Assembly: GCA_964411255.1 (NCBI GenBank) | Contig: CAYPKD010000005.1 | Coordinates: 109,631-173,630 of the forward strand | Source of the DNA: an uncultured Gammaproteobacteria bacterium | GTDB lineage: Bacteria; Patescibacteriota; Patescibacteriia; UBA11705; DATKZF01 | Direction: 5' to 3' | DNA length: 64,000 bases | Part shown: positions 9,655 to 62,521 of the stretch, in pieces | Position numbering within the stretch: position 1 is the stretch's first letter | Layout of the letters: every line of letters starts with the position of its first letter | Notes under the pieces: generated by a model | Told to the model about the DNA's origin: nothing | What the model saw: the letters and a program-made list of their open reading frames with translations, nothing else | The model's database searches: none | Made by a program: the position numbers and the translations under genes

Positions 9655-9660
9655 AAAAAA

Positions 9661-12058: not shown

Positions 12059-12216
12059 AGTATTAAGAGGTTTAAGAGGGAGTTAGAAGGCGAAAGAGGT
12101 GAGATAGGAAAAGAGGTAAAGAAGGCTTTTCCAATATCCCACTGCTCATATCCTGATTCACATCCACCAATTAACAACCAACATCCTTTTTTTATTATAC
12201 CTTGCTGTGGCAAAAT

Positions 12217-12240
12217 AAAAAAGGCCTTTAAGCCTTTTAT
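12217..12240 (-). terminator. Intrinsic terminator (aaaaggc/gcctttt stem) downstream of the LCP gene
   Basis: 7-bp stem, 6-nt loop, flanked by A/T runs (bidirectional). Confidence 0.55.
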
Positions 12241-12275
12241 TATAATTATTTTTTTAAAAAAGTCAATAATGATGA

Positions 12276-13676: not shown

Positions 13677-13808
13677 ATAAAGGATGCTTCATGGAATTAT
13701 TATAAGAGAAAAATTGTGATTTGGCAACTGTGAGTAATTTTATATTTGCTTTTACAGATATTTGATGATATAATAAAAATCAATAAATTTAGAAAAAATT
13801 GTAAAATT

Positions 13809-44411: not shown

Positions 44412-45222
44412 CTTACTCGGGGAATCACAGATTCCCCTCGGCAGTAGGATTTTGACTCGGGGAATCGCATATTCTCCTCGTCACTCATCCTGCGCTGAGG
44501 GGTAACTGAGTTACCCCGACCGGGTATTAAGTATGTCAGTAGAAAAGCATAGTGAGATAAAAGAAAAAGGCGGAATCTATTTTTTTACAACTAGGGTTCT
44601 AGGTGGTAATAATATTTTTATTAAAAAGAGATATATTGATATTATTAAGAATGCGTATGATTTTGCAGAGAAGAAAAGAAATATAAAAAATTTAATTTGG
44701 ACTATAATGCCAAATCATTTGCATTGGATATTTAAGTTAGATGAAAGTAATGATGATCCAATTCCAATTTATCAATACTTTAAACGGCATACTGCCAGAG
44801 AGACATTGCAATTGTTAATGCATGAATCACAAATGAAACCATTTGAAATAGTTAGGTTTTTTAGAAAGTGTAGGTATTACACAGCTGAAGAATTATTAAG
44901 AAGTTTTAAAATTAGAAATAATTATCAATTGTGGGAAAGGAAGCCAGATTTAAAATTATTATATTCCTCTGAGTTTATTAGAATAAAAGTTAATTATATT
45001 TATGAAAATCCGTTCAGAGAGCCGTGGACATTAGTACAAGACCCACAAGATTATCCATTTACTTATATAAATTGGGATTTGATAAACGAATTTTTAGAAT
45101 AAAGTCTCTCTTACTCGGGGAATCGCAGATTCCCCTCGGCAGTAGGGTTTTGACTCGGGGAATCGCCAGCCTACGCCAAGGCTTCGGCTCGCAGGCAGAT
45201 TCCCCTCGACAATAAGATTTTT
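44412..45222 (+). mobile_element. REP-RAYT-REP unit (IS200/IS605-related REP-associated tyrosine transposase flanked by palindromic REP copies)
   Basis: REP hairpins ctcGGGGAATcacagATTCCCCtcgg at 44416-44440, 44456-44480, 45114-45139 and 45154-45210 (interrupted); additional hairpin ggggtaactgagttacccc at 44498-44519. Confidence 0.7.
44533..45102 (+). CDS. REP-associated tyrosine transposase (RAYT; Y1 HUH transposase, IS200-like)
   Basis: HUH motif IMPNHLHWIF; catalytic-Tyr region YQLWERK...EFIRIKVNYIYENP matching RAYT/TnpA-REP conservation. Confidence 0.8.
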   Translation: MSVEKHSEIKEKGGIYFFTTRVLGGNNIFIKKRYIDIIKNAYDFAEKKRNIKNLIWTIMPNHLHWIFKLDESNDDPIPIYQYFKRHTARETLQLLMHESQMKPFEIVRFFRKCRYYTAEELLRSFKIRNNYQLWERKPDLKLLYSSEFIRIKVNYIYENPFREPWTLVQDPQDYPFTYINWDLINEFLE

Positions 45223-46065
45223 ATGAAACAAGAGATTTTAAATTTATTAGAAAAATACGATTTAGGTCCAAAGAAATATTTTGGGCAAAATTTTTTAATA
45301 GATCAACAGGCCTTAAAAAAAATAATTCAGGTTTCTGAGATAAAAAGCGCTGACAACATTCTAGAAATCGGACCTGGACTGGGGTTTTTAACAAAAGAGC
45401 TTGCGAAAAAGGCAAAAAAAGTGGCAGCTGTTGAAATAGATAAAAGCTTGTATTTTATTTTAAAACAGGAATTGAAAAAAATAAAAAACATTGAATTAAT
45501 TAATGATGATATTTTGCAATATGGTTTGGAAAAACTAAAAAAAGTTTTTAATAATCAAAATTATAAAATTGTTGCTAATCTGCCTTATCAGATCACTTCT
45601 CATTTTTTGAAAAAATTTTTAACAGCCCCATATCATCCTGAGCAAATGACTTTGATGGTCCAAAAAGAAGTGGCTGAAAGAATATGCGCTAAGCCTGGAG
45701 CTCACAGCCTGCTTTCGTTATCTGCGCAGTTTTATAGCCAGCCTGAAATTATTCAGATCGTTGATGCAGAAAGTTTTTTTCCAAAGCCAAAGGTGGACAG
45801 TGCGATTATAAAGTTAAAAAATATTCACAAAAGTTCAATAGAAGTGGATGAAAATCTTTTTTTTAGACTTTTGCGCATTGGTTTTTCAGCAAAAAGAAAG
45901 CAATTGCAGAATAATTTAGCTAATGGGTTTCATGAAAATAAGGAAAAATTCAAGGATTTGCTTGAAAAAACAGGCCTTTCTGTGCAAATTAGGGCACAGG
46001 AGCTGGATCTAGCAGATTGGCAGGATTTATACAAATACTTAATAAAATTGAAAATATTAAAATAG
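45223..46065 (+). CDS. rsmA: 16S rRNA (adenine1518/1519-N6)-dimethyltransferase
   Basis: YFGQNFLID; SAM-binding ILEIGPGLGFLT; NLPYQITS motif; terminator agtgga-taac-tccact plus T-run at 46068-46097. Confidence 0.95.
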   Translation: MKQEILNLLEKYDLGPKKYFGQNFLIDQQALKKIIQVSEIKSADNILEIGPGLGFLTKELAKKAKKVAAVEIDKSLYFILKQELKKIKNIELINDDILQYGLEKLKKVFNNQNYKIVANLPYQITSHFLKKFLTAPYHPEQMTLMVQKEVAERICAKPGAHSLLSLSAQFYSQPEIIQIVDAESFFPKPKVDSAIIKLKNIHKSSIEVDENLFFRLLRIGFSAKRKQLQNNLANGFHENKEKFKDLLEKTGLSVQIRAQELDLADWQDLYKYLIKLKILK

Positions 46066-46182
46066 TGGATAACTCCACTATTTTTTAATGAAAACAGGCG
46101 TTTTTTGTGGTATAATAATTATAGTAAATCCAAAACTCTGATCGAAGAGGAGTTTTGAATTTTTATGTCTTTATAGCTTCTT

Positions 46183-46977
46183 ATGGAGCAAGATTATAAT
46201 AATGATCACAATTTAGAAAACACCCACTATCAAGATCCAGAAAAACCAGTTGAAGAACATCACAGGCTGGATCGACAGCAGAAAATTTCAATCGCTGTAA
46301 TTGCAGTAATTGGAATCGGGGTGCTTGTTTTGGGTTTTTGGCAATTTAGACGAACTGTAGAGGTTCCGTTTCCAGATTTTTCAAAAGACAAGACTGAAGA
46401 GCAAAGTCCAGTCCTTGAAGATACACGTGATGAAACATTAAAAGATCAGGATACAGATAGTGACGGACTTAATGATTATGACGAGGTTTATGTTTATCAG
46501 ACCAGCCCGTATTTGAATGATTCTGACAGTGACGGGTATTTAGACAAGGAAGAAATTGAAAACGGATATGATCCTAATTGTCCATCCGGTCAAAATTGCT
46601 TTAACGAATCTTTTGAGGACGTTGTTACCCAAACTCCGGCTCCAGCTGGCAATGGACAGCAGGCTGAAGGTGTAGAAATGACCGCTGATGAAATTAGGGC
46701 AGAGCTTCTGGCTACTGGCATGGTTGATGAACAGACCTTAAATTCAGTAGATGATGCTTCTTTGCTGCAATTATATGAGCAAAGCATGGGTGAACCTTCA
46801 ACACCTGAGGGTGTGAGTTCTGTTAATGATTTATATAATCTTTCAGCAGATGAAGTGAGGCAAATTTTAATTGACGAAGGAATGGATCCAGAGCAGTTAA
46901 ATCAGATAGATGATGAGACTATATTAAAAATGTATAAGGATACGCTGGATGAAGTGCAGAAGGAGCAGGAAGAATAG
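46183..46977 (+). CDS. Single-pass membrane protein with TSP3-like Ca-binding repeats (paralog of 25523 and 26331), immediately upstream of the giant ORF
   Basis: TM ISIAVIAVIGIGVLVLGFW; repeats DQDTDSDGLNDYDE, NDSDSDGYLDKEEIENGYDPNCP. Confidence 0.6.
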   Translation: MEQDYNNDHNLENTHYQDPEKPVEEHHRLDRQQKISIAVIAVIGIGVLVLGFWQFRRTVEVPFPDFSKDKTEEQSPVLEDTRDETLKDQDTDSDGLNDYDEVYVYQTSPYLNDSDSDGYLDKEEIENGYDPNCPSGQNCFNESFEDVVTQTPAPAGNGQQAEGVEMTADEIRAELLATGMVDEQTLNSVDDASLLQLYEQSMGEPSTPEGVSSVNDLYNLSADEVRQILIDEGMDPEQLNQIDDETILKMYKDTLDEVQKEQEE

Positions 46978-47059: not shown

Positions 47060-50000
47060 ATGAAATATTTCCGAAAGAAAAAAATAAAAAGCATAATAAT
47101 AGTTGCGATTATCGCCTTAATGATTTCAACAGGCGTTTTTTTTGCAATAGGACCAAAACAAACAAAAGCGCAGGGAATGCCAGTTTTTGACGCTCAACAA
47201 TGGAATTTAGAAATGAATTGGTTGTTGTGGGAGCTTGATAAGTATCTTGCAGAATTGCAGGCGAAAGCTGCAGAAGAGGCAAAGAAGGCAATTTTAGAAA
47301 AAATAAAGCAGGCATTTATTCGTACCGCTGCTATTACGTTAAAAAATACTTTAATATATTTTATTCAGGAGGCTGGCAGGCAGACAATGGAATACGTTGC
47401 GACTGGCAGCTGGAGCCAGGGGCCAATGTTTTATGAAAAAACATTTGATTATTTTAAAGATACGCTTATTGGTGCGGCTTCGCAGGAATTTTTAGATGAG
47501 CTGGCTTATAATCTCTGGTCAGAAACTGGTTTTGATATTTGTGATCCTGATGTGTCAATAAAAATGATGATCATGCTTAACCTTCAGTTGACATTACCGC
47601 ATCCGACTTATGAAAAGGTAGCGCCTCGTTGCGACTGGAATAAAGTACGAGGAAACTGGGAAAACTTTTATGCTGATATTAGAAAAAATGTTGAGGATGT
47701 GAAAGGCCAGACATTTGCTGCTATGGGCGCAATGCAGGAATCATTAGATCCTCAGCAAAATGATTTTGGTATATTTTTAAAAACCATGGATGATAATATT
47801 ACCAAGCGGCAAGAGCAATATGAAAGGGAAAGAGATGAGAGAATGGCGCCATCCAAATTAAGAGCCAAAACATCATTGGTTACTGGTACAGTTGAGACGC
47901 CAAGTTTTATGATTGAGCCAGTTGTTAGAAGCGATGTTGAAGCTATTCAAGCCAGTAGAAAAACTGAGTTAAAAAGTGGAGAAGCAATTATAGAAGAAAT
48001 CCCAGAACAGGTATTGTTTGCTTTTATTCAAAGTTTTGGCCCGCAACAGTTTTTAATGGCAGCATTGCAAAGGATTTTTGGTGGTTTGGTAAAAAAAGCT
48101 GAGAGCTTTAATCCTGTTCATCAGGTTTTTGAAACGAAAAAAGCAATTCAAAAAGTAAATACAGAAATTTTAACTGCTGATTTTTCATTTGAGCCCAGAG
48201 ATGTCAGCCTAATAGACGAATTTGTAAATTGTCCGGCTGAAAGTTCGCCGTCTACAGGCGCAGATGTTCCTCGGGGAATCAATGACTGCGTAATGGACAG
48301 AAATTTTGCTGAAGCAGTCAGAAGATCATCTTCTTCAGGCGAGGCAATGACTGTTCAAGCAGCAATAAATGAAGGCTTATTAGATCCGAATAAGCCTTTT
48401 TATAGTTCAAGCGATCCAGAAAATACTCATGCTAAGTGTTATTCATTCGGCTATTGCTACAGTAATTTGAAAAAATTAAGAAAAGCCAGAATAATTCCAA
48501 TTGGCTGGGAAATAGCTGCTGAAAAGACTGCAGAGACAGGAAATAAATCACTACAGGATATAGTAAATGAATTTAACAATGAAAATTCAGATTTTTACAG
48601 ATTAATTGATCCAAGCTGGGTTTTGAAAGAACCGATTAATCAATGTAGAGCAAATGTATATGGCCCGGACTTGATTGCCAGCGGAGCTGAAGACCGGCCA
48701 GAAGTATGTGCTGATTATCGCACATGTATTGAAGAGACTCCAAACGGAGACTGCATTGGCGGATATGGATATTGCGCTGAAGAAGAAAGAACCTGGCGGC
48801 TAGATGGTGATTCATGCGAGCCGCAATACGCTGGTTGTACAACTTTATTTGACCGAAACGGTGTAGGGACAGGTTGGCTATTAGATACATTGGATCCAGT
48901 TGCTTGCAGCGCTGCTGACGTTGGCTGCCAATTATACAGTTTATGGAGAAATTATGAAACAGGTAGTGGCGAATGGATATATGATCTTGCCAGTAGCGAA
49001 AGCGACCGATTCTTATATTTAAATAAAAATGTTGAAAATGAGCTTTGCAGTCCGGAAAAAGAAGGCTGCACCCGGTTTATTAGAACAGCCGCAGATCTTG
49101 GTACGAATTTGATTTACAATTCAGGATTTGAAGAAGTGCCGGATAATGCAGATTTAACTGATTTGGTCAGTGTTCCAAACTGGGGAGATATAAATATTTC
49201 TGATCAAATATTTAACACTGGAAGCTATGCTACATTTTTTGGAAAAGAGACACCGAATTCTATAATAACATCTGAATATATTAATGTTGTTCCAAAAGAT
49301 TATGACAGATATTTTGTGTTAAGTGGATATGGCTATAGAACGTCAGATGCAATTGGAATAAATTGTACTCTGCAAACTTCTGATGGAGTTGGGCCTTTAT
49401 CAATTCGAACTTCATTTTTAGATTCAGGTCCTACAGTGCTTGAAACCTGGACCAGAAAATCATGGATTTTTAATATTCCAGGTGATTCGAATACAGCTTT
49501 TATCCAGATTCAATGTGCCCCTACAGATTTAATTTCAGGAGTGATTCATTATATGGATGATATTCAGCTTGAAGAGGTGTTAGATCCAAATTTAATTGCT
49601 TCATATAATGACTATGCCACTGTTAATGCTTCTTATTTAAAACAGGCGCCAGAATATTATGACTGCTATGATGGCAATCCAAATACCAATCATGTTAACT
49701 GCGATAATTTTGCTCCGATTTGCGATGCAGATGATGTAGGCTGTGAAACATACACGCCAACAGACGGCGGAGCATCGCAGAATGCAGTAGTGGGCAGATA
49801 TAATTATTGTCCAGCTGAATGTAATGGCTATGAAACTTTTTCCCAATCTGAAACATTTTTTGAGCTGTCAAAATTCCCACTATACTTTATCCCAGCCACA
49901 GCCAGGCAATGCTCAGAGCAAAACGTGGGCTGCGAAGCATATACAAATGTTGATGTGCTGGAAGCTGGTGGTGAGGCCGTCAGTTATTTCAAACAAATCA

Positions 50001-53000
50001 GACAGTGTTCAAAACCTGGGCCAGACTGCGCAACATTTTATACCTGGGAGGGATCTGAAGTAACCGGTTATCAGATTCAAAACCACAGTTTGCGAGATAT
50101 TGATGGAGATAATGATCCGGATGTTACCAGTGCTGCTCTAGATGGTCAGAATTGCAATGCTGATATTTTTGCTGCTCAGATAAACCCTGATTGCAGACAA
50201 TTTTATAATCAAGATGGTGACATATTTTATCATCTAAAATCTTTGACCATCACTTGTGCTGAAGATTGCAGCCCTCATCGGCTGGAAGTGGAAGATGCTT
50301 CAGAAGAAAAATGCACCAGCTCAAATGGTGAATGGGATGATAATACTAATAAATGTATTTATGACATTATAGTTGATGAAGCAGTAACTTGTCCGGTACA
50401 GGAAGTCGGTTGCAGAGAATACAAAGGCAATTTTGCTGGTGATATTGAAATATTACATACTCAGGATTTGGAAAATTATGATTCTCATGAGTGGAATCGC
50501 GGAGAGCTGTCCTCTGAGTCATTTGCATTAGGTGGTAAATCATACCGGGTGCCACAAACTGCACAAACCGGGGAGACTGCAGTTTATTATCGATTACCAG
50601 GATTCCCAGATCCGGATTTTGCTTTGACTTTATCAGCTAATGAACAATATCAATTTGAAATTTGGATAAAACCTAACTTAGAAGATACAGCTGATATTGC
50701 AGATATTGATAATATTGATGTTAATGGATTTGAAACAGATATTAATATTTTAGGCTTTAGCCAAATTCCTTTGAATATAAACAGTTTAGACTGGGCTGCT
50801 TATGGTTTGATTATCAAGCCAACCACTGATGTGGCAATCAACAGCATCAGCTTTACAAACATGGTCAAGCAAGTGCCAGGACAATCAAGGCCTCAGACCA
50901 TGGGATATTTTATAGATAATATTAAAATAAAAAAGATACAGGGAATGCAGACTTTAATCAGAGATACCTGGAGCACACCAGAGACTTGTGACAAGCGGCT
51001 TGATACAGATGAACCTTTGCCTCAGGCGATGCTGGGCTGTCGGGAATATAATGACCGGGCAGGCAATTTGCATTATTTGCGTTCTTATAATAATTTCTGT
51101 GACGCATCAGTTGTTGGCTGCGAAGCTTTAATTGATACAAAGAATTCTATATTGCATGATGGTAAAGTTTATGATCGAGAACCTGTAGATTTATGCAGTT
51201 TTTCTACTACTATGGTAGATCAACCATTGGGCAGGACCTGTAGAATGAAACTATTGCATTACATGTGTACTCAAAATGCAGATTGGGTTGGTGATTTTGC
51301 TACATTTGAAAATCCTTTGGAGGCCTGCTTAAATCAAAATAATAATGTTGTTCCAGTTACTGACTATGCGCTAGAGAAAGACACTTGCGAGACTATTGCT
51401 GAAAATGGAACAGATAATATTGCCTGGATAAATGAAAGATGCGAAAGAGTGGGTGTGCCTCCGCTGTATGAAGTATCTGATGACGAATATGTGTACCGGG
51501 TGATTTCTGAAGAAAATTCATGTACGGCAGAGGATAAAGGATGCACAGCTACAGCTTTGGCTAATTTAGATTATGATTTGAGTATTGGCGATTGGTTTGA
51601 AACCCATATTAAAATAGATCCTGATAATTTGGATGATAAAATGTGCAATGCTAACTCTGTTAGATGCGAAGAATATATTGATTCAAATAACAATGTGTAT
51701 TATTTTAAAAATCCAGCATTAAGATATTGCGAATATAGGACTGATCCATCTGGTGACGGCTGGTTTGAAGCTGGCAGTAATGAAAGATGCTTAACCTGGC
51801 AGCCATATAATGGCATTGATATTCCTTTGCCGTATTATCACTGGGATTATAGGGATGATACACAATTATCAGTTGACAGTTATGAAGGCTGGCCAGCAAT
51901 GTGTCCTGAAGAAGCTGATACTTGCACGGCATTTTTAGATCCTGCTGCGAAAACAGATGATAATCTAGTAGGCCATGCATATTTTTTGAAAAATAATGAA
52001 AAAATAGACAAAGAATCCTGTGAAAATATGGTTGATCCTGGTCAGGGTTGCGTATTATTCTTAGATACTTCAGATCCTAATGGCCCTCAATGGAGTTCTG
52101 AATTATCTAACTTTGAGAATGCTGGCTCTGGAGAACCCATTCCGCCTGTTTCAATTAATGAAACAACGAATGCTCAAAATACTATTAATCTTTTAACTAC
52201 TAATGATGTCCAAGCTGAAACAATGAGTTTTTCTCAATATTTTGATTGGATAGATAGTTTAGAAGCTTCTGAATTGTCTGTTGTATATGATTTTGCATCA
52301 GAGAAAAATAATTATTGGGTTGATATTAATTATTCAGATGGTAGCGGTGGTGTTTCAAATGTAACTCAGGCATTTAATGATAGTAATACTATAATAAAGG
52401 TAAAACAAGATCGCCAATGCTCAAAGTGGTATACCTGTTTAGGTCCGAGCTATGTTTGGGATCAAAATGCAGGTCAATGGGTTGAGATTTGTGAATTAGT
52501 TGGATTATGTGATGAATATGGCAATCAGGGTGGGGGCGCATATTGCAGCCATGTTGTATTGCCTGATGAAAACACGACTGATCCTCTCAATCAGAGGGAT
52601 TACTTTACAGTCGAAGATTATCAAAAACGACAATCAGCAAAATATCAATATTTAAATAAATATTTTGATCTATATACTCCTGAATTTTCTGGTATGGCAA
52701 TTGTAAACAATATCCCTTTGCAGTATTTAGAGCCAAAGGATTTGAATGAAGATGTAGAAGATCCATACTATACTTTAGCTGGAAATATGAATCAGATTGG
52801 AGATAATAATGAATGTAGTGGTATTGTCAGCGATATGATAGAAGCAGTTGTTCCTAATTTAGCAGATCAGCTGCCAACTTCTGCTGGCGCCTCAGTTAAT
52901 GGAAAATGTTATGCGCCTAAGAATTTATTTGAAACATTAAATTCTACAACACCTGACAGATGGCCGGAGGAAAAGCTGTGCCGCGCTTATCCCCGGGATA

Positions 53001-56000
53001 ACACTCCATTTCCGGTTGATGCTGTCTTTGAGACTTTAAGTGATCCTGAAACAAAGAGCAATGAGAAAAAACGTGAAAAATATAGAAATGTAAATAATTT
53101 CGGATATAATTTGACAGAAATGACATCTGACGAAAAGGTTGCAGATTCCGGATGCAGATATAGAGAAGTTAAATATGGCAGGGGACAGGTTACGTTATAT
53201 TTATCCCCTGATATGCCTGCGCCAACTGCAATTTGTGAACAAACTCAAAAGCCATGCGAATGTCTGGATCAAAGAAATCCTGATAATCCTGTCTGTATGG
53301 ACAGCGACTGTCCGGGTACTCAGTCATGTTTGCAAAAAGAGTTAAGCATAGTTGATTTATATGGATGGGAAGGATATTGTTTGGAAGAAGATGAATCAAT
53401 AAATTTATTTGCAAATGAAAATAAAAATCCATGTTTAACATGGTATCCGGTTGACATGACAGTTGGTTTGTCAGACCATTATAATCAATATGCTAAGGCT
53501 GGGTATACAAGTAATGAACTTCCATATTATTGCTTAACTGCAGAGCCTTATCTGCAGGAAAAAGCATATTTTTCCGGCTGTACAGCACAGGAAACTACTG
53601 GTGCATGGAATGGATTTTTAGCATGGACTAATATAAATAGTAGTAGCTGGAGCGTTCATGGTGAGTGCAATTCCCATGAATCCAAGAATCAAAAATTATG
53701 GACTGAATGGCTTTATGAAAAAATACAAGAAGCAGCGACTGATTTTGAAGCAGAAACTCCAGATGATAAACTATATGCAGTTTCAAGCGCATTTGGAGAA
53801 TTTTTATCCACCGCAGGTACTGGACATGAAAGAGGCTGGTATCCTGATGAAGACGATGACGATAGGATTGAAATGGGTGAAATGAGAGCTGAAATGAATA
53901 GTATGTTAATAAGTTATTATTTTTCAGCTGCATCAGATAATGATAATAATTCATCTGATCCATATTATAATAGAGATTGCGGTGATGGATATTTTCCAGT
54001 ATTTGCTCCATGCGGTGGAAATGAATCTGGGAATCCTTGGGAAAATTCTCCAGGAATGGGATATAAATGCGATTCAAATGAAGCTGGAGGTGTTTTATGT
54101 GTACCGTTTAATTCATATATTGATATTCCTGATGAGGAAATAATAAAATGGAAAGAAATGGATCCAATAGGAATTGATGTTACAGCTTTTCAGGGTGCTG
54201 AATGTAGGCCGCATTTTACTAGAGGAGAATTATTACGAAAAGGAACTGTAACTGCAGGTGGTAAAGAATCTTGTTTCGACAATTCCAGAAATGTGGATCC
54301 GTATAGAAATTTCGCGGTTTATACTGATGATGATGGTAATACAGTAAAAGAATGTGAAACTGATGAAGTAATATGGGTTAATACTGTATATGATATGGTG
54401 GTAGCTGTTGATAACGGCTATGAAGTTGCATGGCCAAGTGCAATCCCTAAACCTGAGGAATGGAATGATTGGGGGTCTACAAATAGTAAAAGTAGTATAA
54501 TTGATGATGTTTTCTCTTTGAGGAAAAGTGATACAGGTGGGCCGTATTTCTGGAGAGTTCGGGACAAATCAGAGTTAAAAGACGGGGCAGAAGAATATTT
54601 ATACGGGACAACTGCTTGGTCGGGAGGAAATGCCAGTGATGGAATTTGGGATGCTGCATTATATGAGCGAGGCTGGGATAATATTAATTTTGATTTTATA
54701 GTGCCATTATATAGATATTGTGTTCAAAAAACCCCAGTCACTGATACATACAGAATTTATACTGATGCAAATGAAAATGACTGGGATACAGTTGCTGAAT
54801 TTATTGAGAGAGAATCAATTGAAGCACAAGATGTTAAGTCGTCTAACGGCACAGTGGGTGACTTATTAATATCAGTATCAGCGAAAAACGATACTTATTT
54901 AAGTGGTGAGGGTCAAATCTTTGCAACAGGTAATACATTATGCAGCCATTTAGCAGAAGTGGAAAATACAAAATTTGAAGATAAAGCCTGGACAGACAAA
55001 TTATATAATAATGATTTGTCAAAGAGACTTGATGCCATTCCATATTTAACACAAGGTACACCTGATGATGCGTGGGAACTGTTGTTATATGATAATTTAC
55101 GATTTTATTTAGGTTCTATATCGTTTAATTATGGACAAACAGAGATGCCAAGGCTTGTAGAAGGTGAATTAAATGATGAATTTGTTCCTGCTGCCACCTG
55201 CGCATACAACACAGGGATAGTTGAGACTTCAAGTCCTTCATTATTAAATTATCGAATGTTATTGAATCCAAAGATTACAGATGATTTTAAAGGAACTGAT
55301 GTGGAATGTTCTCCTGTTACATATCAAAAAGTTGGAGGAGGATCCTTCCAGACAACATCTACATTATTAGATAAAGAATCAGCAAAAGCTTATAATGCAT
55401 ATAGAGTTGAGGGGGGTAGATTCCCTGATTGTATTGGTGGTGGAGATTGTTCTATAGATACACCTTATGGATTATCTGCTTCTACATATTATGGAGCTGA
55501 CCCAAGTGATGGTGCTGATGATTTTAGTTACGGATCTGTGGCAACACCGCGAAGATTAAGAATGACTCGTCCCTTAGAAAGATTGCAGCTCATATTTGCT
55601 AAAGTTTATGATGTATGGAGATGGCAACCGATATTTGAAAATAGTTCAAATTCTGTTGATAATTATTTACCAGGTGGATCAGGTGTTTCTCATGATGATC
55701 ATGCTAAAAGATGGTATAGGGGATTTGAATATAAGTCTGATAGAAATTTAGTTGATGATATGGGCGGTGATGCATATATGTCAACATTATCAGAGAATAA
55801 TGTACAACCATATTATAAATATACTGATGATGCTTCATATAATATTGTGAAGGATGTAGATTATTCAGAAGTTTTAATTCCTCAGGTTACAGGCGTGGAA
55901 TTAAGACCTGGCAAAAAATATCGGGCTGTACCAGGTACCATTACATTAGAAACAGAAGCTGAAAGAAAAAATGATGGAGTTCTTGGATTAGACAGTGATA

Positions 56001-56692
56001 ACAGAGGGCAATTAGTCGTCAGCTCTCAATTCTTTGGCTGGGCAAATAATGATCATATGCCTGTTCGAAGTGTTCGAGTGCATTGGGGTGACGGCGTGGA
56101 TAGCATATCTGGTGGTGCTAAGGGTCAGTATAAAAATCATAAAGCTGTTTGCGCAGAAACTCCAGATCAACCAATAAGTTTTTGTGCTGGAGGGGGAAGC
56201 GCAGGGCAAGAAACTTGTTTTTATGATGATGATTGTTCAAATCAGAATTGTAATACAGGTGTTTCAGTTGTTCAATTTGGAGCAGTACCTGATGCCTGTA
56301 CAATGAGTTATTTCCAAAAGACTCATGTATATGCTTGCGCAGAACATGGAGGTGATCTGCCAATTTGTGATAATTCTGCTACCAGCATAATTAATAGTGG
56401 ATCATGGGGTGATGTTCCGTTGACGACTGGATGTTATGATTCTTCCTTTATTCCATCAACTGTTGATGATAATGGTTCGACCTCAGTAACTGGCGCATGT
56501 TTATTCAGACCTGGCGCTCAGGTATTGGATAACTGGGGCTGGTGTAATGGTGATTGTGAAGGATCTGGAGAGGGATGTTATAATGATCCTGTTCCGGGAC
56601 TTCAAGCAGGAGTTTGTGATAATTCTGGTGATCCATTGCACGACAAAGCTTATACGCGCTACAATGGTATAATTATAGTTATTCCTCAATAA
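47060..56692 (+). CDS. Giant (3210 aa) Cys-rich secreted/membrane-anchored protein of unknown function
   Basis: Uninterrupted 9.6-kb ORF. N-terminal TM IIIVAIIALMISTGVFFAIG. Numerous paired Cys and Asn/Asp/Tyr/Trp-rich beta-like regions. Terminator (ccctttaata/tattaaaggg) at 56712-56746. Confidence 0.8.
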   Translation: MKYFRKKKIKSIIIVAIIALMISTGVFFAIGPKQTKAQGMPVFDAQQWNLEMNWLLWELDKYLAELQAKAAEEAKKAILEKIKQAFIRTAAITLKNTLIYFIQEAGRQTMEYVATGSWSQGPMFYEKTFDYFKDTLIGAASQEFLDELAYNLWSETGFDICDPDVSIKMMIMLNLQLTLPHPTYEKVAPRCDWNKVRGNWENFYADIRKNVEDVKGQTFAAMGAMQESLDPQQNDFGIFLKTMDDNITKRQEQYERERDERMAPSKLRAKTSLVTGTVETPSFMIEPVVRSDVEAIQASRKTELKSGEAIIEEIPEQVLFAFIQSFGPQQFLMAALQRIFGGLVKKAESFNPVHQVFETKKAIQKVNTEILTADFSFEPRDVSLIDEFVNCPAESSPSTGADVPRGINDCVMDRNFAEAVRRSSSSGEAMTVQAAINEGLLDPNKPFYSSSDPENTHAKCYSFGYCYSNLKKLRKARIIPIGWEIAAEKTAETGNKSLQDIVNEFNNENSDFYRLIDPSWVLKEPINQCRANVYGPDLIASGAEDRPEVCADYRTCIEETPNGDCIGGYGYCAEEERTWRLDGDSCEPQYAGCTTLFDRNGVGTGWLLDTLDPVACSAADVGCQLYSLWRNYETGSGEWIYDLASSESDRFLYLNKNVENELCSPEKEGCTRFIRTAADLGTNLIYNSGFEEVPDNADLTDLVSVPNWGDINISDQIFNTGSYATFFGKETPNSIITSEYINVVPKDYDRYFVLSGYGYRTSDAIGINCTLQTSDGVGPLSIRTSFLDSGPTVLETWTRKSWIFNIPGDSNTAFIQIQCAPTDLISGVIHYMDDIQLEEVLDPNLIASYNDYATVNASYLKQAPEYYDCYDGNPNTNHVNCDNFAPICDADDVGCETYTPTDGGASQNAVVGRYNYCPAECNGYETFSQSETFFELSKFPLYFIPATARQCSEQNVGCEAYTNVDVLEAGGEAVSYFKQIRQCSKPGPDCATFYTWEGSEVTGYQIQNHSLRDIDGDNDPDVTSAALDGQNCNADIFAAQINPDCRQFYNQDGDIFYHLKSLTITCAEDCSPHRLEVEDASEEKCTSSNGEWDDNTNKCIYDIIVDEAVTCPVQEVGCREYKGNFAGDIEILHTQDLENYDSHEWNRGELSSESFALGGKSYRVPQTAQTGETAVYYRLPGFPDPDFALTLSANEQYQFEIWIKPNLEDTADIADIDNIDVNGFETDINILGFSQIPLNINSLDWAAYGLIIKPTTDVAINSISFTNMVKQVPGQSRPQTMGYFIDNIKIKKIQGMQTLIRDTWSTPETCDKRLDTDEPLPQAMLGCREYNDRAGNLHYLRSYNNFCDASVVGCEALIDTKNSILHDGKVYDREPVDLCSFSTTMVDQPLGRTCRMKLLHYMCTQNADWVGDFATFENPLEACLNQNNNVVPVTDYALEKDTCETIAENGTDNIAWINERCERVGVPPLYEVSDDEYVYRVISEENSCTAEDKGCTATALANLDYDLSIGDWFETHIKIDPDNLDDKMCNANSVRCEEYIDSNNNVYYFKNPALRYCEYRTDPSGDGWFEAGSNERCLTWQPYNGIDIPLPYYHWDYRDDTQLSVDSYEGWPAMCPEEADTCTAFLDPAAKTDDNLVGHAYFLKNNEKIDKESCENMVDPGQGCVLFLDTSDPNGPQWSSELSNFENAGSGEPIPPVSINETTNAQNTINLLTTNDVQAETMSFSQYFDWIDSLEASELSVVYDFASEKNNYWVDINYSDGSGGVSNVTQAFNDSNTIIKVKQDRQCSKWYTCLGPSYVWDQNAGQWVEICELVGLCDEYGNQGGGAYCSHVVLPDENTTDPLNQRDYFTVEDYQKRQSAKYQYLNKYFDLYTPEFSGMAIVNNIPLQYLEPKDLNEDVEDPYYTLAGNMNQIGDNNECSGIVSDMIEAVVPNLADQLPTSAGASVNGKCYAPKNLFETLNSTTPDRWPEEKLCRAYPRDNTPFPVDAVFETLSDPETKSNEKKREKYRNVNNFGYNLTEMTSDEKVADSGCRYREVKYGRGQVTLYLSPDMPAPTAICEQTQKPCECLDQRNPDNPVCMDSDCPGTQSCLQKELSIVDLYGWEGYCLEEDESINLFANENKNPCLTWYPVDMTVGLSDHYNQYAKAGYTSNELPYYCLTAEPYLQEKAYFSGCTAQETTGAWNGFLAWTNINSSSWSVHGECNSHESKNQKLWTEWLYEKIQEAATDFEAETPDDKLYAVSSAFGEFLSTAGTGHERGWYPDEDDDDRIEMGEMRAEMNSMLISYYFSAASDNDNNSSDPYYNRDCGDGYFPVFAPCGGNESGNPWENSPGMGYKCDSNEAGGVLCVPFNSYIDIPDEEIIKWKEMDPIGIDVTAFQGAECRPHFTRGELLRKGTVTAGGKESCFDNSRNVDPYRNFAVYTDDDGNTVKECETDEVIWVNTVYDMVVAVDNGYEVAWPSAIPKPEEWNDWGSTNSKSSIIDDVFSLRKSDTGGPYFWRVRDKSELKDGAEEYLYGTTAWSGGNASDGIWDAALYERGWDNINFDFIVPLYRYCVQKTPVTDTYRIYTDANENDWDTVAEFIERESIEAQDVKSSNGTVGDLLISVSAKNDTYLSGEGQIFATGNTLCSHLAEVENTKFEDKAWTDKLYNNDLSKRLDAIPYLTQGTPDDAWELLLYDNLRFYLGSISFNYGQTEMPRLVEGELNDEFVPAATCAYNTGIVETSSPSLLNYRMLLNPKITDDFKGTDVECSPVTYQKVGGGSFQTTSTLLDKESAKAYNAYRVEGGRFPDCIGGGDCSIDTPYGLSASTYYGADPSDGADDFSYGSVATPRRLRMTRPLERLQLIFAKVYDVWRWQPIFENSSNSVDNYLPGGSGVSHDDHAKRWYRGFEYKSDRNLVDDMGGDAYMSTLSENNVQPYYKYTDDASYNIVKDVDYSEVLIPQVTGVELRPGKKYRAVPGTITLETEAERKNDGVLGLDSDNRGQLVVSSQFFGWANNDHMPVRSVRVHWGDGVDSISGGAKGQYKNHKAVCAETPDQPISFCAGGGSAGQETCFYDDDCSNQNCNTGVSVVQFGAVPDACTMSYFQKTHVYACAEHGGDLPICDNSATSIINSGSWGDVPLTTGCYDSSFIPSTVDDNGSTSVTGACLFRPGAQVLDNWGWCNGDCEGSGEGCYNDPVPGLQAGVCDNSGDPLHDKAYTRYNGIIIVIPQ

Positions 56693-56742
56693 ATTATTTA
56701 TATATATAATAAAAAGCCCTTTAATATGTGTATTAAAGGGTT

Positions 56743-57453
56743 TTATTGTTTTTCATAAATATATTCTGAGATCACGGATGACCCACTTGTTGATTGCGTG
56801 AGGTGTATAGTAATGTCACCATGGTTTATTTCAGAAAATAAATTGCGTCCATATGAATCAGTCCAGTCAACGATATACTTATCACCGACCTTTTTGATTG
56901 GAATTCCCAGCTCTGCAGGATAGAATCCTAGCAGAACAGCTTCGTAGTCAGAAAAATACTGATCAAAATTTTCTGAAGGAGCAGCAACGTAGACAGTCAC
57001 TTCCCTGGGTCCAGAGGAGCTTGAATCAGTTCTGGCCCAGTCTCCTTCAATAAATTTCAGCTCTTCGACTATGTTGTTGTCAGCGTGTAGAATGATCGGA
57101 TCCAGCTCTGTGTTTTCATTTACGCACAACAGGCTTTCCCAATCATGATACCCTTGAAGCGTGACTGCAATATCATAGCAGCCCTCTGTAACTTCTACAT
57201 TTCCTGGCGTGGTAGCGCCTGTGCTTTTACCATCCACCCAGATCTGGGCGTTTTCAGGTGAGCTGGCCACAGTGACCGTGTACTTGTCCACGGGCGTGGT
57301 CTGGTCTGGCAGCAGAGTGCTGTCTGGGCCAGGGCCAATGTCAGGGTTGACAGTGCTGTCTGGGCCAGGGCCTGTCCCACCAGAATCAGAATCGCAGCTG
57401 AGAGTGCCAAAAGAAAGGATGAAAATGCTGAAAATGGTTACGAAATACTTCAT
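56743..57453 (-). CDS. Lipoprotein with PEGA domain, relatively GC-rich
   Basis: Signal peptide plus lipobox LSC; Gly/Pro repeats GTGPGPDSTVNPDIGPGPDST; PEGA-like segment YTVTVASSPENAQIWVDGKSTGATTPGNVEVTEGCYDIAVTLQGY. Confidence 0.6.
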   Translation of the reverse strand: MKYFVTIFSIFILSFGTLSCDSDSGGTGPGPDSTVNPDIGPGPDSTLLPDQTTPVDKYTVTVASSPENAQIWVDGKSTGATTPGNVEVTEGCYDIAVTLQGYHDWESLLCVNENTELDPIILHADNNIVEELKFIEGDWARTDSSSSGPREVTVYVAAPSENFDQYFSDYEAVLLGFYPAELGIPIKKVGDKYIVDWTDSYGRNLFSEINHGDITIHLTQSTSGSSVISEYIYEKQ

Positions 57454-57608: not shown

Positions 57609-57637
57609 GCAAAAACGTAAAATGTCAAGAGATTATA

Positions 57638-57804
57638 TAATGTCGGAATTAAATCATTCGTATTGTCTGTAGGGACAGAATATTATTCTGTCCCTACACT
57701 GCGGACATCATTTTTTTCCATAATGTCGGAATTAAATTATTCGTATTGCCTGAAAGGACAGAATAATATTCTGTCCCTACATTACCGACATCATTTATTT
57801 TTTT
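57638..57804 (+). repeat. Two tandem 83-bp direct repeats, each a nested palindrome ending in a T-run (hairpin-terminator-like)
   Basis: Inner palindromes gtagggacagaata|tattctgtccctac at 57669-57697 and ggacagaataatattctgtcc at 57756-57776; outer arms atgtcgg...ccgacat; partial third copy (gaaaggacagaata) at 57495-57508; a further hairpin plus T-run at 57822-57848. Confidence 0.6.
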
Positions 57805-58637: not shown

Positions 58638-60944
58638 ATGACATACGCAAAGTCTGTTTTCTTTATTTATATTCTTTGTATTTGCAGTTTTGCCCAGGCG
58701 GAAAGTCTAGTTTTAGATGTTCCATTTAAAAGCCAGGTGCTGCCTGGCAGCTGGCAGTATACCAGAAACTGCGGACCAACTGCAGCATTAATGATGGCCG
58801 GATATTATTTGAATTTTCAGCCGACCACTGAGGATATTATTGCTGTTGATGACTGGCTTTATGATATGGAAATTATCCATGCTCAGCATGGTATTGATAA
58901 ATATAATGGTAATTACACAAACATTACAGATTTGCAGTATTTATTAGGTGATTATTTTGAGTTAGGCAGTATTGAAAAAACATATGCTCCAGAATTAAAG
59001 CAGGAATACATTAAAGAACAAATTCGGCGCGGAAATCCCATTCTAGTTGCTGTTAGAATAAATATGAAAGCATCTGGCCCAGGACATTTTATGCTGGTTA
59101 TCGGTTTTGATGATACTGGTGTAATTGTCCATGACCCTGGGCATTCTGCAGCAAATGGCGGATTAGCCAAACATTATTCATATTCTCAATTTTTAGCTTC
59201 ATGGAGCAGCTGGAGTTATGTTGCGCTTCATATTGGCCGGTTCACTACCTGGCACCCAAATGGTACTTTGATTAAAATTGCGCAAAACCCAGATGTTTAT
59301 CAGTTAATGGACAATGTAAAGCATTTAATCATTGATTGGTCAGTGTTTTTAGCCCATGGCTTTGATTCAAATAAAATTATTGAAGTTAAGCAGCAGGAAA
59401 TGGATTGCTATTCTACTTCCTGGGAAATAAACTGGAAGCCATATAGAGAAACCTTTAAATCTGAAGGCGATAGCAGAATTTATTTATTGGAAAAAAATAA
59501 TGCTGCTGATATTGGTTGTATTATTTATAGTTTTGCTACTAATTTGGCAGCTGAAAGCTGGGGGTATTTAATTGAAGATATTCAAATTTTACCAGCGGAT
59601 ATGGCTGAGCAAAAGATTAATAATTGTAATCCTGGAGAAACGATTTATATTCGCGATGGAAGTTTAATTAAGCCAGATCCAGCTTTGTACAATTGGGGTT
59701 TTGGGCAGGGGGCAGTATTTGTCATTTCTGACCAGGGTTTAGCCAGAGTGTTTATTAATAATCAAGTATTTCAGCAAATGGGATATAATTCTCAAAATAT
59801 TATAAATGCTGATCGGGATCAGTTTTTAATGAGTGTTAATGGTTTTGGAGAAACTATTATTACTGATAATTTAAATCAATGTTTAATGAGCCCGCAGGGA
59901 AGCGGCGCAGAATGCGTTGATGGAGATATTTTAGAAACATATTCAGGCTTAATAGAAACTTTTGGTATTGGAGTCTGCCAGCCCATGCAGAAAAGCTGCT
60001 CAAATGGCATTTGGTATGTGATTCAGGATGAAATGCTGCCATCTAATGAAATTGAAGACGGGCTGGACAATGACTGCGATGGACTAATTGATGAAGATTT
60101 TATTTTAGAGCCTGAAATTCAAGAGCATGTTTGCAATGATGGTGAATTAATAAATACTTATTCTGGCCAGATTGAAACATTAAGTATTGGCATTTGTCAG
60201 GCAGAAATAAAAATTTGCCAGAATAATGCTTGGATTTTAATTCAGCAGCAGGTTTTGCCAAATGAAGAGCAAAATGACGGGCTGGATAATGATTGCGACG
60301 GACTGATTGATGACGGATTTAATCAATATCCAGATCCGCCGCAGGAAGATGAAGAATGCATTGACGGAGAATTGCAGAATAATTATTCTGGACCGTTAAA
60401 TACGTTTGGTATTGGAAATTGCCAGCCTGAAATTCTTTCATGCGTGGATGGATTTTGGCAATTAGTTCAGTATGAAATTTTGCCATCAATAGAAATTGCT
60501 GACAATTTAGATAATGATTGTGATGGATTAGTTGATGAGGCTTTAACTCAAGGATTTGAGCAAAATCCTCAGACTGCTGATGGGCATTTATGGGCAGCAA
60601 AAAGTTGCGGCCTATATTGTATTGCTTTTTGCGATGATTATTTACTGGGCCAGCCAGATCAGGCGATCGTAGTAGGTAATGTGCCCGGTATCTGGTGGAC
60701 ATATGAGTTAGGCTTGGTTTTGCAAAAGCAAGCAGACGGTTATTATCATTTTAATATGTATCAAACTATTTTGCCTGGGATTTATCGCGTATCATATATG
60801 CGAACAGACCAGACCTGGGCATTGTATGGAGATGATTTGTATGATGATGTAGGGCCGTTTAGAAAATGTGGATTTGATGAGTTTGGCTATACTTGCTGGA
60901 TTGAGTTTGAGGTTTTGAGTAATGGCAATATTATTTCTGTATAA
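58638..60944 (+). CDS. Secreted papain-like (peptidase C39-like) domain protein with three Cys-rich metal-binding-motif repeats
   Basis: Signal peptide; DVPFKSQ...NCGPTAALMMAGYY...GHFMLVIGFDD...HDPG (C39_2-like Cys/His); three repeats of about 80 aa ending in DGLDNDCDGLIDE. Confidence 0.7.
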   Translation: MTYAKSVFFIYILCICSFAQAESLVLDVPFKSQVLPGSWQYTRNCGPTAALMMAGYYLNFQPTTEDIIAVDDWLYDMEIIHAQHGIDKYNGNYTNITDLQYLLGDYFELGSIEKTYAPELKQEYIKEQIRRGNPILVAVRINMKASGPGHFMLVIGFDDTGVIVHDPGHSAANGGLAKHYSYSQFLASWSSWSYVALHIGRFTTWHPNGTLIKIAQNPDVYQLMDNVKHLIIDWSVFLAHGFDSNKIIEVKQQEMDCYSTSWEINWKPYRETFKSEGDSRIYLLEKNNAADIGCIIYSFATNLAAESWGYLIEDIQILPADMAEQKINNCNPGETIYIRDGSLIKPDPALYNWGFGQGAVFVISDQGLARVFINNQVFQQMGYNSQNIINADRDQFLMSVNGFGETIITDNLNQCLMSPQGSGAECVDGDILETYSGLIETFGIGVCQPMQKSCSNGIWYVIQDEMLPSNEIEDGLDNDCDGLIDEDFILEPEIQEHVCNDGELINTYSGQIETLSIGICQAEIKICQNNAWILIQQQVLPNEEQNDGLDNDCDGLIDDGFNQYPDPPQEDEECIDGELQNNYSGPLNTFGIGNCQPEILSCVDGFWQLVQYEILPSIEIADNLDNDCDGLVDEALTQGFEQNPQTADGHLWAAKSCGLYCIAFCDDYLLGQPDQAIVVGNVPGIWWTYELGLVLQKQADGYYHFNMYQTILPGIYRVSYMRTDQTWALYGDDLYDDVGPFRKCGFDEFGYTCWIEFEVLSNGNIISV

Positions 60945-61684: not shown

Positions 61685-62521
61685 ATGAAAAAATTGCTTA
61701 CATTTACTTTATTATTCAGTTTGGTTTTTATTATTTCAGGCTGTGGCAAGGCTGGCAGTGATGTTGAAATAACAAATTTTGAAATTAATGAGGTTCCAGT
61801 AACGGTTTCAACAGTTGATTTTGAAATGGAACAAGCAACTATTGAGGAAAAAGCTGAAATTGAGAAAAAAGAGTCTGAGCTTGAGCCTTTGCCATCAACT
61901 TATGACACAGATGTATTATTTGCTTCCCAGGCGCCATTTGCCAATTGGAGCCTGCCATATCAGGAAGCTTGCGAAGAAGCCAGTTTAATTATGGCTTATA
62001 AATATTTTGCTAATCAGGCTTTGGACAAAAAAATAATGGATGATGAAATAAAAGGATTAGTTGAATGGCAGCTTGATAATTTTGGCTATTATACAGATAC
62101 CAATTTGGAAGAAGTGGCAATAATTGCAAACGAATATTTTAATTTAGACGTAGAAATTTCTGATAATGTTTCTATTGAAAATATAAAAAGGCAGCTGGTC
62201 AATGGAAATTTAATTATTATTCCAGCATCAGGCAGGGATTTAGGCAATCCAAACTTTACAACACCTGGCCCATTGTTTCATATGCTGGTTATCCGAGGTT
62301 ATGACAGAAATGAGTTTATTACCAATGATCCAGGCACTCGAAAAGGCTTAAAATTCAAATATAAATACCAGACTTTAATCGATGCAATTCATGATTTACC
62401 AATTATTGAAGGAAAAAAATTTCGACCATATGAGGAGGAAAGTGTGGCAGACAGTGTAAAGCTAAGCCGAATAAGATCAGGGCCTAAACAAATATTAATT
62501 ATTAAAGGATTGATAAAATAG
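61685..62521 (+). CDS. Lipoprotein with peptidase C39-like (papain-fold) domain
   Basis: Signal peptide plus lipobox ISGC; FASQAPFANWSLPYQEACEEASLIMAYKYF (Cys box); HMLVIRGYD...NDPG (His box); terminator at 62527-62555. Confidence 0.65.
   Translation: MKKLLTFTLLFSLVFIISGCGKAGSDVEITNFEINEVPVTVSTVDFEMEQATIEEKAEIEKKESELEPLPSTYDTDVLFASQAPFANWSLPYQEACEEASLIMAYKYFANQALDKKIMDDEIKGLVEWQLDNFGYYTDTNLEEVAIIANEYFNLDVEISDNVSIENIKRQLVNGNLIIIPASGRDLGNPNFTTPGPLFHMLVIRGYDRNEFITNDPGTRKGLKFKYKYQTLIDAIHDLPIIEGKKFRPYEEESVADSVKLSRIRSGPKQILIIKGLIK

Follow-up and report, generated by a model that had tools for sequence, protein, structure and literature searches.

A giant, cysteine-rich, probably exported protein with a neighbouring partner gene represents an unnamed, length-conserved family on one branch of the Patescibacteria

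The 64,000-nucleotide stretch of contig CAYPKD010000005.1 analysed here (referred to as the window) is a chromosomal, housekeeping-rich segment of low GC content (~36%), within which a single open reading frame (ORF) on the plus strand, 47060-56692, runs from an ATG start through 3210 codons to its stop. At 9633 nt, this giant gene occupies 15.05% of the window, and the ORF listing reproduced exactly the coordinates, the length of 9.6 kb and 3210 aa, and the share of about 15% reported in the original prediction, an earlier reading of the letters which had described a cysteine-rich protein with an N-terminal transmembrane anchor and no nameable family, and had suggested that it may mediate host attachment in a small-genome episymbiotic lineage. 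An identical 3210-aa protein is encoded on five public contigs, with entries lacking a name in NCBI, JGI, ENA, and Logan, and a 42%-identical homologue is colinear along 100% of the giant protein; the gene is therefore no artefact. The protein is a member of an unnamed, length-conserved orthologous family on one branch of the Patescibacteria, and the earlier interpretation, taken as a whole, was partly supported.

The size of this family was gauged by several searches. A word-indexed search returned 58 homologue clusters, nearly all of 2600-3470 aa and each labelled either 'hypothetical' or 'carbohydrate binding domain-containing', the named ones originating from Falkowbacteria, Parcubacteria, Buchananbacteria, and generic Patescibacteria metagenome-assembled genomes. 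A scan of one genome per species located relatives in 360 genomes, including one complete 1.17-Mb chromosome, with informative titles referring to Falkowbacteria, Uhrbacteria, Komeilibacteria, Kuenenbacteria, and Parcubacteria. NCBI taxonomy assigns these named lineages to the Patescibacteria/Parcubacteria group, and in GTDB terms they are taken to make up class ABY1. The assumption of a small-genome episymbiotic lineage thus held, since all informatively labelled relatives belong to the Patescibacteria/Parcubacteria group and both the gene content and the low GC of the window fit it. When the first 500 residues were used for an exhaustive profile search, it yielded 2274 representatives at E<=1e-3 and 1133 at E<=1e-30; each representative being a cluster at 50% identity, the family comprises at least 1133 clusters. 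The best 150 of that search are mostly ~2500-3700 aa in length, about two dozen shorter ones probably being fragments, and all of these 150 are family members. Long members have a median length of 3027 aa and a median cysteine content of 4.0%. No second family copy was found in the window or in the flanks of 6-10 kb on either side of the loci examined, nor was any reuse of its modules by neighbouring genes detected, and a literature search found no published description of the family.

Two peculiarities of the records deserve mention. Many of those sharing the gene order described below are titled 'uncultured Gammaproteobacteria bacterium', 'Candidatus Methylomirabilis sp.', or 'Candidatus Bipolaricaulota' (loci L008, L009, L014, L019, L023, L028, and others, as well as member P0002); these titles are probably placeholders or the result of mis-binned contigs and not a true occurrence outside Patescibacteria. 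Additionally, the members P0188, P0191, and P0193 are proteins of 440-600 aa encoded on 12-75 kb contigs and away from the contig ends, which suggests split or frameshifted giant copies (pseudogenes or sequencing errors) in some genomes.

With respect to export, hydropathy analysis of the giant protein revealed a single strongly hydrophobic segment at aa ~8-30, contained in a predicted Sec signal peptide of aa 1-37 (47060..47170, plus strand) with a basic n-region (KKKIK), a hydrophobic core, and a TKA↓QG site. The hydrophobic N-terminal core is present in 164 of 170 long members, and 129 of the 170 carry A-x-A after it, usually followed by Q; shuffled sequences gave 82 on average and 96 at most. 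A further strongly hydrophobic 19-mer beyond residue 90 was encountered in just 5 of 163 members, and a signal peptidase I gene is present in the window. Because this family-wide A-x-A↓Q signal-peptidase-I site follows it, the N-terminal segment is likelier to be a cleaved leader than a transmembrane anchor, with the leader probably being removed after Ala37; the hydrophobic stretch behind the predicted anchor was hence confirmed and its role as a permanent anchor was not.

The mature protein would begin with QGMPVFD (aa 38-44; 47171..47191, plus strand), a start which resembles that of VirB5/TrbJ proteins at the level of the motif only. TKA↓QGMPVFD in the giant protein compares with VMA↓QGIPVFD in TrwJ, the VirB5 of R388, and the start Q(L/F)VV(S/T)DP of other members with the VirB5 starts QLIVEDP and EIVFDP. 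The strict motif stands right after the cleavage site in 33 members, where 0.3 would be expected and at most 3 occurred in 200 shuffles; the 129 members with an A-x-A site include 33 strict and 56 loose matches. Homology to the VirB5 domain was rejected upon alignment of the family N-terminal domain with a profile of nine VirB5 proteins by hhalign, which covered 25 columns at a probability of 6.5%, and likewise with the VirB5/TrbJ model PF07996, which matched TrwJ, the positive control, over its first 80 aa at 1.3e-10 and none of nine family N-termini. Matches to DUF4141 recur on the same segment below threshold (at most 19.2 bits versus a 30-bit cutoff). The PDB profile search returned no VirB5, TraC, or TrwJ chain, a tblastn search with one family N-terminus against plasmids returned nothing, and no VirB4, VirB6, or VirD4 domain was found in window ORFs of at least 100 aa.

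The dense pattern of paired cysteines noted in the original prediction was borne out. The giant protein contains 104 cysteines (3.24%), and C-x6-C accounts for 15 of the 103 gaps between successive cysteines, many of them reading C-x4-(V/K/A)GC-x2-(Y/F). Family-wide, the spacings C-x5-C and C-x6-C exceed those of shuffled sequences 3-3.7-fold, and C-x2-C is depleted 8-fold (0.6 per protein versus 4.7 in shuffles), on which ground a metal-cluster reading of the cysteines was rejected. Complete pairing of cysteines should produce even counts, and these were indeed observed in the mature protein of 153 of 163 complete members (binomial p ~5e-34). Fifty cysteine positions of the giant protein are at least 95% conserved; the variable ones include 12 reciprocal pairs that are gained or lost jointly, four of them at r=1.0, and the long-range pair C990-C1066 is a perfect example, both residues being present in 42% of members and both absent otherwise. 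On these sequence statistics, the cysteines look like disulfides, which would amount to about 52 bridges. An MdbA-like thiol-disulfide oxidoreductase family, often encoded beside VKOR, is reportedly enriched in candidate phyla radiation (CPR) bacteria (bioRxiv 10.1101/335083), for which reason the presence of a disulfide-forming machinery is plausible. Cysteine richness is not unique to the giant ORF, given that the other large exported proteins of the window contain 2.2-3.5% cysteine; most cytoplasmic ones lie at ~0-1.5%.

Searches of Pfam, NCBIfam, and PDB sequences with the full-length giant protein and with 350-aa tiles gave nothing near threshold, and no full-length homology to a family of characterised function emerged from them. 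The earlier statement that no family could be named therefore stands for the protein as a whole and fails for two internal modules, which are predicted to be CBM_4_9-type jelly-rolls akin to carbohydrate-binding modules (CBMs). Homologues cover the protein unevenly: aa 1-2150 and ~2950-3210 are common to nearly all members, and aa 2150-2950 can be aligned with the two closest only. Internal duplication or tandem repeats were dismissed, as self-BLAST revealed none and only the short cysteine motif recurs.

Following the leader and the short motif, the N-terminal region of aa 45-375 (47192..48184, plus strand, as are all modules) is predicted to consist of long helices, modelled by AlphaFold2 (model 1) with a predicted local distance difference test score (pLDDT) of mostly 33-57; it carries the conserved motifs GGxGQxPLF and RxEGxGxKxxTxxISGxIxTPA at a median identity of 25% across loci. 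It leads into the most conserved domain, aa 376-545 (48185..48694), which is marked by the sequence GYCYSNLxKLRKARIIPIGWEIAA, by three cysteine pairs, and by the invariant residues R474, R477, G482, E484, and W520. A second AlphaFold model of this domain reached a pLDDT of 84-97 across most of aa ~384-524, for which Foldseek gave a best PDB match of E 1.4 (probability <=0.13) and no relative in BFVD; sequence profiles against the PDB found none, and a profile search with the domain retrieved only further fragments of the giant family. Cysteine-repeat block A (aa 546-682; 48695..49105) follows with the invariant cysteines C550, 556, 565, 572, 586, 593, 616, 623, 663, and 670.

The first of the two candidate carbohydrate-binding modules, CBM-A (aa 683-855; 49106..49624), is a predicted jelly-roll of the CBM4/9/16/22 kind. 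Foldseek aligned it with CBM4-2, CBM16, and CBM22 at a probability of 1.0 and E values from 3e-4 to 1e-3, the structural matches 3jxs, 2y64, 2zey, and 4xup having target-normalised TM-scores of 0.5-0.6, and the PF02018 match of the homologue P0057 aligns to aa 683-773. The beta-rich cysteine-repeat block B (aa 856-1129; 49625..50446; pLDDT 83-91 over aa ~950-1120) separates it from CBM-B (aa 1130-1300; 50447..50959), a CBM_4_9-like module assigned by sequence alignment, to whose aa 1130-1265 the PF02018 matches above the gathering score in homologues P0001 and P0025 align. At both module positions, the homologues score 30.5-57.4 bits against a 25.9-bit cutoff. Two CBM_4_9-type modules are accordingly proposed, A by its predicted fold together with homologue Pfam matches and B by the latter. 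Further conserved cysteine-repeat blocks and a middle region extend over aa 1301-2150 (50960..53509; 37-58 of 58 clusters per 50-aa window), all the cysteine-repeat blocks of the protein being beta-rich, succeeded by the lineage-variable region of aa 2151-2950 (53510..55909), for which BLAST found the two closest homologues only and Pfam nothing. The conserved C-terminal module (aa 2951-3210; 55910..56689) contains 14 cysteines and the signature FYAWADxxQMPIR...DWGD...DNWGWCNG...WTxFxGxIxVxP; these last ~260 aa are conserved in 25-52 of the 58 homologue clusters and have no Pfam or PDB relative, a PKD-like assignment also being dismissed since no PKD match appeared in either search. Family C-termini end in ...WTxFxGxIxVxP(K), with no LPXTG and no hydrophobic tail.

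Immediately upstream of the giant gene lies a partner gene (46183..46977, plus strand) for a protein of 264 aa with one transmembrane helix at aa ~36-58 and TSP3 repeats. When aligned with three orthologues, the invariant columns of the partner comprise TSP3-type repeats (DTDxDGxxDxDE...DSDSDG) and the cysteine pair of DPxCPxGQxC, accompanied by a short basic N-terminus and a duplicated C-terminal helical motif. Weak TSP3_bac and EF-hand matches were obtained, and the repeats are, judging from their sequence, of the calcium-binding type. A hairpin with a T-run (46059..46084; 11-bp stem), a likely terminator directly after the ksgA stop, separates ksgA from the partner-giant unit, and is followed by a promoter-like site on the plus strand (46088..46116), in which ATGAAA, a 17-nt spacer, and a TATAAT preceded by the TG of an extended -10 element give 10 of 12 matches to the consensus, from which its function is presumed. 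No convincing terminator was found between the partner and the giant gene. Downstream, a bidirectional terminator-like hairpin (56713..56744; 14-bp stem with T-runs on both strands) lies between the giant gene and a convergent PEGA lipoprotein gene. The partner and the giant gene would thus form a two-gene operon.

By tblastn, 77 of 85 loci have the partner directly before the giant gene, and of the eight without it, seven offer no more than ~200 nt of sequence upstream; 70 of the 85 loci include ksgA. The gap from partner stop to giant start has a median of 9 nt over 74 loci and is sometimes negative, compared with 82 nt in this window. The order of ksgA, a ~260-aa protein, and the giant gene recurs in relatives that are just 25-42% identical, embedded in the fixed housekeeping neighbourhood nrdD-nrdG-htrA-prfA-ksgA-partner-giant. 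Genes downstream of the giant gene differ between loci, with the PEGA lipoprotein being kept among the closest relatives only.

A similar arrangement is seen elsewhere in the window, where the adjacent plus-strand genes 16804-18690 and 18717-25487 each encode an N-terminal T4SS_pilin domain (PF18895, VirB2-like) fused to cysteine-rich extracellular regions. The fusion proteins are 628 aa long with Big_5 (2.2% cysteine) and 2256 aa long with Big_5, Big_7, and DUF4215 (3.5% cysteine). They are followed by a bona fide TSP3-repeat protein of 241 aa (25523-26248), which mirrors the partner-giant arrangement, and the two pilin fusions and the giant protein, all three being large and exported, jointly take up ~29% of the window. 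The partner is 52% identical to the 241-aa protein over 46 aa; its candidacy as a paralogue was rejected, the shared part being the TSP3 repeats only.

The evolutionary pattern of the giant protein is uneven. Within the same genome set, median identity is 41.3% for aa 376-545, 40.8% for KsgA, and 34.5% for cysteine block B. Single-sequence tblastn located both CBM-like modules and aa 2151-2950 in the 4-5 closest relatives only, the latter region in 4 of 86 sequences. Relative to the closest homologue, the CBM modules are 25-33% identical (33% in the aa 701-800 window of CBM-A and 25% in the aa 1201-1300 window of CBM-B) and aa 2151-2950 28-51% identical, as against mostly 50-74% for the flanking scaffold blocks. 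The scaffold and the base are thus conserved, in contrast to the fast evolution of the putative ligand-binding parts. No template/variable repeat (TR/VR) pair of a diversity-generating retroelement (DGR) was found for the giant gene, whose only direct repeat is a 41-nt match at chance level, nor is there a reverse transcriptase among the window ORFs; a retroelement does not, therefore, explain the variation.

Taking the above together, the giant protein can be read, with a confidence that is about evenly balanced, as a secreted, partner-tethered surface fibre that binds glycans, with adhesion as its likeliest role. The protein would be exported via Sec, losing its leader after Ala37, and would fold oxidatively into a disulfide-stapled, largely beta-rich structure of many modules with about 52 disulfides. 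Its base would be held at the cell surface by the partner and the N-terminal half (the helical region and aa 376-545), and the conserved cysteine-repeat blocks would serve as a rigid scaffold displaying the two CBM4/9-type jelly-rolls and the ~800-aa variable region. What is so displayed may bind glycans or further structures on the surface of another cell, most plausibly a host, or in the environment. The sequences show the secretion signal, the cysteine statistics, the module map, the family with its distribution, and the operon with its synteny; leader cleavage, tethering by the partner, the fibre shape, glycan binding, and host attachment are inferred from them. Host attachment, which the original prediction had put forward, is plausible on the protein's sequence and fits the secretion signal, the CBM-like modules, and the fast evolution of those modules and of the 800-aa region.

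Several observations weigh against this reading. Neither recognised adhesin domains nor tandem Ig-like repeats were found by Pfam, tiles, or self-BLAST, and the giant protein's own CBM regions lie under the PF02018 threshold both in full length and in tiles. The AlphaFold2 confidence is low for the helical region and parts of the cysteine blocks. As no covalent or known non-covalent anchor is visible after cleavage, surface retention depends on the presumed partner interaction. Moreover, it would be uncommon for a host-specific adhesin to keep its core at housekeeping-level conservation in one fixed place of the chromosome, and the ksgA-like conservation and fixed position with an obligate partner would fit a core envelope structure equally well.

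That last point leads to the foremost alternative, in which the giant protein is a structural part of the cell's own envelope, be it a coat resembling an S-layer, a scaffold spanning the wall, or a matrix protein, its CBM-like modules binding the cell's own wall polysaccharide and the partner being the membrane attachment point. Such a role, which we regard as possible but on the unlikely side, is favoured by the divergence of aa 376-545 at no faster a rate than ksgA, by the fixed housekeeping position in relatives of 25-42% identity, by the conserved length (median 3027 aa) with no second copy in the window or examined flanks, and by the envelope-related neighbours PGA_cap, DUF3160, PEGA lipoprotein, and LCP. 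It is disfavoured by the lack of an SLH, CWB2, or other known wall-binding or S-layer domain, and the strong lineage variability of the 800-aa region and both CBMs is more typical of variable external targets. Less probable still is the idea that the protein acts as a functional VirB5 counterpart for the VirB2-like pili of Patescibacteria, that is, a ~350-kDa tip or nucleator whose mature N-terminus docks onto the pilus or the VirB6 platform and whose CBM-bearing, lineage-variable body is the adhesin on the host cell. Surveys of type IV secretion systems (T4SSs) in Patescibacteria reported VirB2-like pilins from 1,948 assemblies but detected no adhesin of the PrgB type, and a single genome, one with a Gram-negative-type system, yielded VirB5; the T4SS is essential in the sole genetically tractable Patescibacteria species (PMC12102498; PMC12857230). 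The vacancy left by these surveys, the QGMPVFD/QGIPVFD correspondence with its family variants (33 members versus 0.3 expected), the sub-threshold DUF4141 matches on the same segment, and the two T4SS_pilin (PF18895) fusion genes in the window all speak in its favour, as do the shared sequence of a Sec leader, a near-identical mature N-terminus, and then a helical region, as in TrwJ. VirB5 proteins, however, are ~210-250 aa in size and encoded beside virB4 and virB6, unlike a 3210-aa protein of no domain homology, with no T4SS core genes (VirB4, VirB6, or VirD4) in the 64-kb window and in synteny with ksgA. Part of the hhalign signal stems from signal-peptide composition, the motif occurs in ~20-35% of members only, and neither the hhalign comparison (25 columns, 6.5%) nor PF07996 (0 of 9 N-termini) supported it.

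CBMs are classically appended to carbohydrate-active enzymes (CAZy modular enzymes), and it might thus be envisaged that the giant protein is a secreted enzyme or lytic factor in which aa 376-545 is a new catalytic module, targeted by the CBMs to degrade host or environmental polymers. The CBM-like modules at two positions and the invariant charged residues of a domain with no known fold relative would suit this view, and bacterial predators' giant genes have been connected with the breakdown of cell walls (bioRxiv 10.1101/2023.11.21.568195). It is nonetheless improbable: Pfam, NCBIfam, PDB profiles, and Foldseek all failed to point to a catalytic family, more than 2500 non-catalytic scaffold residues would be unusual, and the invariant residues are equally fitting for a binding site. 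DGRs being common in CPR bacteria, a polymorphic toxin or a DGR-diversified protein could be suspected from the way in which 2150 conserved N-terminal aa give way to a lineage-variable region, which would represent the payload or the diversified ligand-binding site. The conserved extreme C-terminus, the lack of a conserved immunity-like gene downstream and of a toxin domain in Pfam, and the above-mentioned failure to find a TR/VR pair for the giant gene or a reverse transcriptase in the window leave this reading largely refuted and scarcely credible.

The surface-fibre reading was further examined against systems that are already known. Giant surface proteins in CPR bacteria are known as a phenomenon and provide the reading with a precedent, the ten longest proteins of the predator Vampirococcus lugosii (1392-4163 aa; membrane or surface) having been proposed to function in host recognition and attachment (PMC8080830). 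The giant protein shares with them its very large size, its predicted extracellular or membrane-associated location, and its origin in a small-genome Patescibacteria lineage. It differs, as far as published descriptions can be compared, in that the V. lugosii giants carry WD40, PKD, DUF11, integrin, and fibronectin domains (PMC8080830), none of which occurs in the giant family, whereas the latter is a single orthologous family with cysteine-stapled blocks, two CBM-like modules, two orphan conserved domains, fixed synteny, and an obligate partner. CBM4/9, 16, and 22 share the jelly-roll fold predicted for aa ~683-855, and homologues exceed the PF02018 threshold at both module positions; unlike usual CBMs, these modules are embedded in a giant non-enzymatic scaffold instead of being appended to a glycoside hydrolase, and the protein's own copies are too diverged for Pfam.

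Giant adhesins are built of long tandem Ig-like arrays with typically few or no cysteines, and are anchored via LPXTG and sortase or retained by the type I secretion system (T1SS). The giant protein resembles such Sec- or T1SS-exported adhesins (LPXTG-anchored MSCRAMM/Bap-type proteins; the RTX adhesins LapA, SiiE, and MpIBP; and Giant1-5 of Apilactobacillus kunkeei, PMC12863079) in being extracellular, in exceeding 3000 aa, and probably in a long modular architecture whose ligand-binding modules lie towards the distal part. Unlike them, it has no tandem repeats by self-BLAST, no LPXTG or hydrophobic tail, a predicted ~52 disulfides, and a separate membrane partner. Established classes were rejected one after another: a sortase-anchored surface protein, as the C-terminus has no LPXTG, hydrophobic stretch, or basic tail; an RTX/T1SS adhesin, given the Sec-type leader and the want of internal repeats and of RTX/HemolysinCabind or Big matches; an SLH/CWB2 S-layer protein, no such Pfam match appearing at E<=1 in full length or tiles; a polymorphic toxin of the Rhs/CDI type, the last ~260 aa being conserved and the downstream genes not; and a DGR variable protein, with neither a TR/VR pair for the giant gene nor a reverse transcriptase among the window ORFs. 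The giant protein would hence work like other giant bacterial surface proteins while fitting no described family, only its two jelly-rolls belonging to a known superfamily. As far as the literature searched shows, the orthologous family, its partner, the two orphan domains, and the extreme disulfide content predicted for it are new.

The remainder of the window provides the genomic setting. Its housekeeping genes include topA, dprA, der, pth, hisS, ybeY, ftsA, ftsZ, nrdD, nrdG, htrA, prfA, and ksgA, and its envelope and export genes encode signal peptidase I, an LCP protein, PGA_cap, DUF3160, the PEGA lipoprotein, and two C39-like peptidase-domain proteins; a tRNA and Rfam search of the window found none. 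The last-mentioned pair (58638-60944 and 61685-62521) consists of exported proteins with Peptidase_C39_2 domains, the 768-aa member of which (3.1% cysteine) contains three internal repeats of ~220 nt encoding DNDCDGLIDE-type (MopE/TSP3-like) cysteine motifs. In L001, the closest relative, the pair likewise comes after the giant gene, an arrangement that more distant relatives do not share. Between the PEGA lipoprotein gene (minus strand) and the ORF at 57921 (plus strand), which diverge from each other, a tandem duplication of an 81-83-nt unit (57637-57800; 89% identical), each copy with a GTAGGGACAGAATA…TATTCTGTCCCTAC palindrome, could be a regulatory or REP-like (repetitive extragenic palindromic) element.

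Upstream of ksgA, next to the PGA_cap gene, an ORF of 189 aa (44533-45102) gave a weak IS200/Y1-transposase-like match (E 0.008). Two direct repeats of 57 nt that are 96% identical (44412-44468 and 45110-45166) enclose this ORF, and either repeat bears a CTCGGGGAATC…GATTCCCCTCGG palindrome. The ORF is missing from 85 of 85 related loci, on account of which 44412-45166 looks like a RAYT/IS200-type insertion between the PGA_cap gene and ksgA. In the area of ~10000-14000, gene orientation changes from mostly minus (before 13.7 kb) to almost all plus, and both GC skew and AT skew flip sign, which could mark a replication-related strand switch. Close by, ~1 kb at 8210-9258 is devoid of any ORF longer than 64 aa, the bin 8001-10000 having the second-highest GC of all 2-kb bins (0.399); no tRNA and no Rfam match even at E<=0.1 were found there. 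Directly after it, 9259-9654 encodes a protein of 131 aa in which a leader of the lipoprotein type precedes an extremely basic body rich in Arg, His, and Tyr.

A substantial part of bacterial diversity falls to Patescibacteria, which are presumed to lead an attached life on other cells, and we know of essentially no contact molecules outside Saccharibacteria. The present family is populous, length-conserved, and wholly unannotated, with at least 1133 clusters at 50% identity and relatives in 360 species genomes. Its apparently heavy reliance on extracellular disulfides (~52 bonds) would be unusual for bacteria which are usually described, and here presumed, to be anaerobic fermenters. Testable handles are offered by the interaction with the partner, by the question of which glycans the CBM-like modules would recognise, and by a dependence on MdbA/VKOR. 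A specific hypothesis is also raised for the missing VirB5 and adhesin components of Patescibacteria T4SSs; were the VirB5-equivalent reading true, it would tie an essential yet mechanistically opaque machine of these episymbionts to a concrete adhesin. Should the giant protein instead prove to be a self-directed scaffold, the distinctive envelope of this branch would thereby have its first proposed molecular component.

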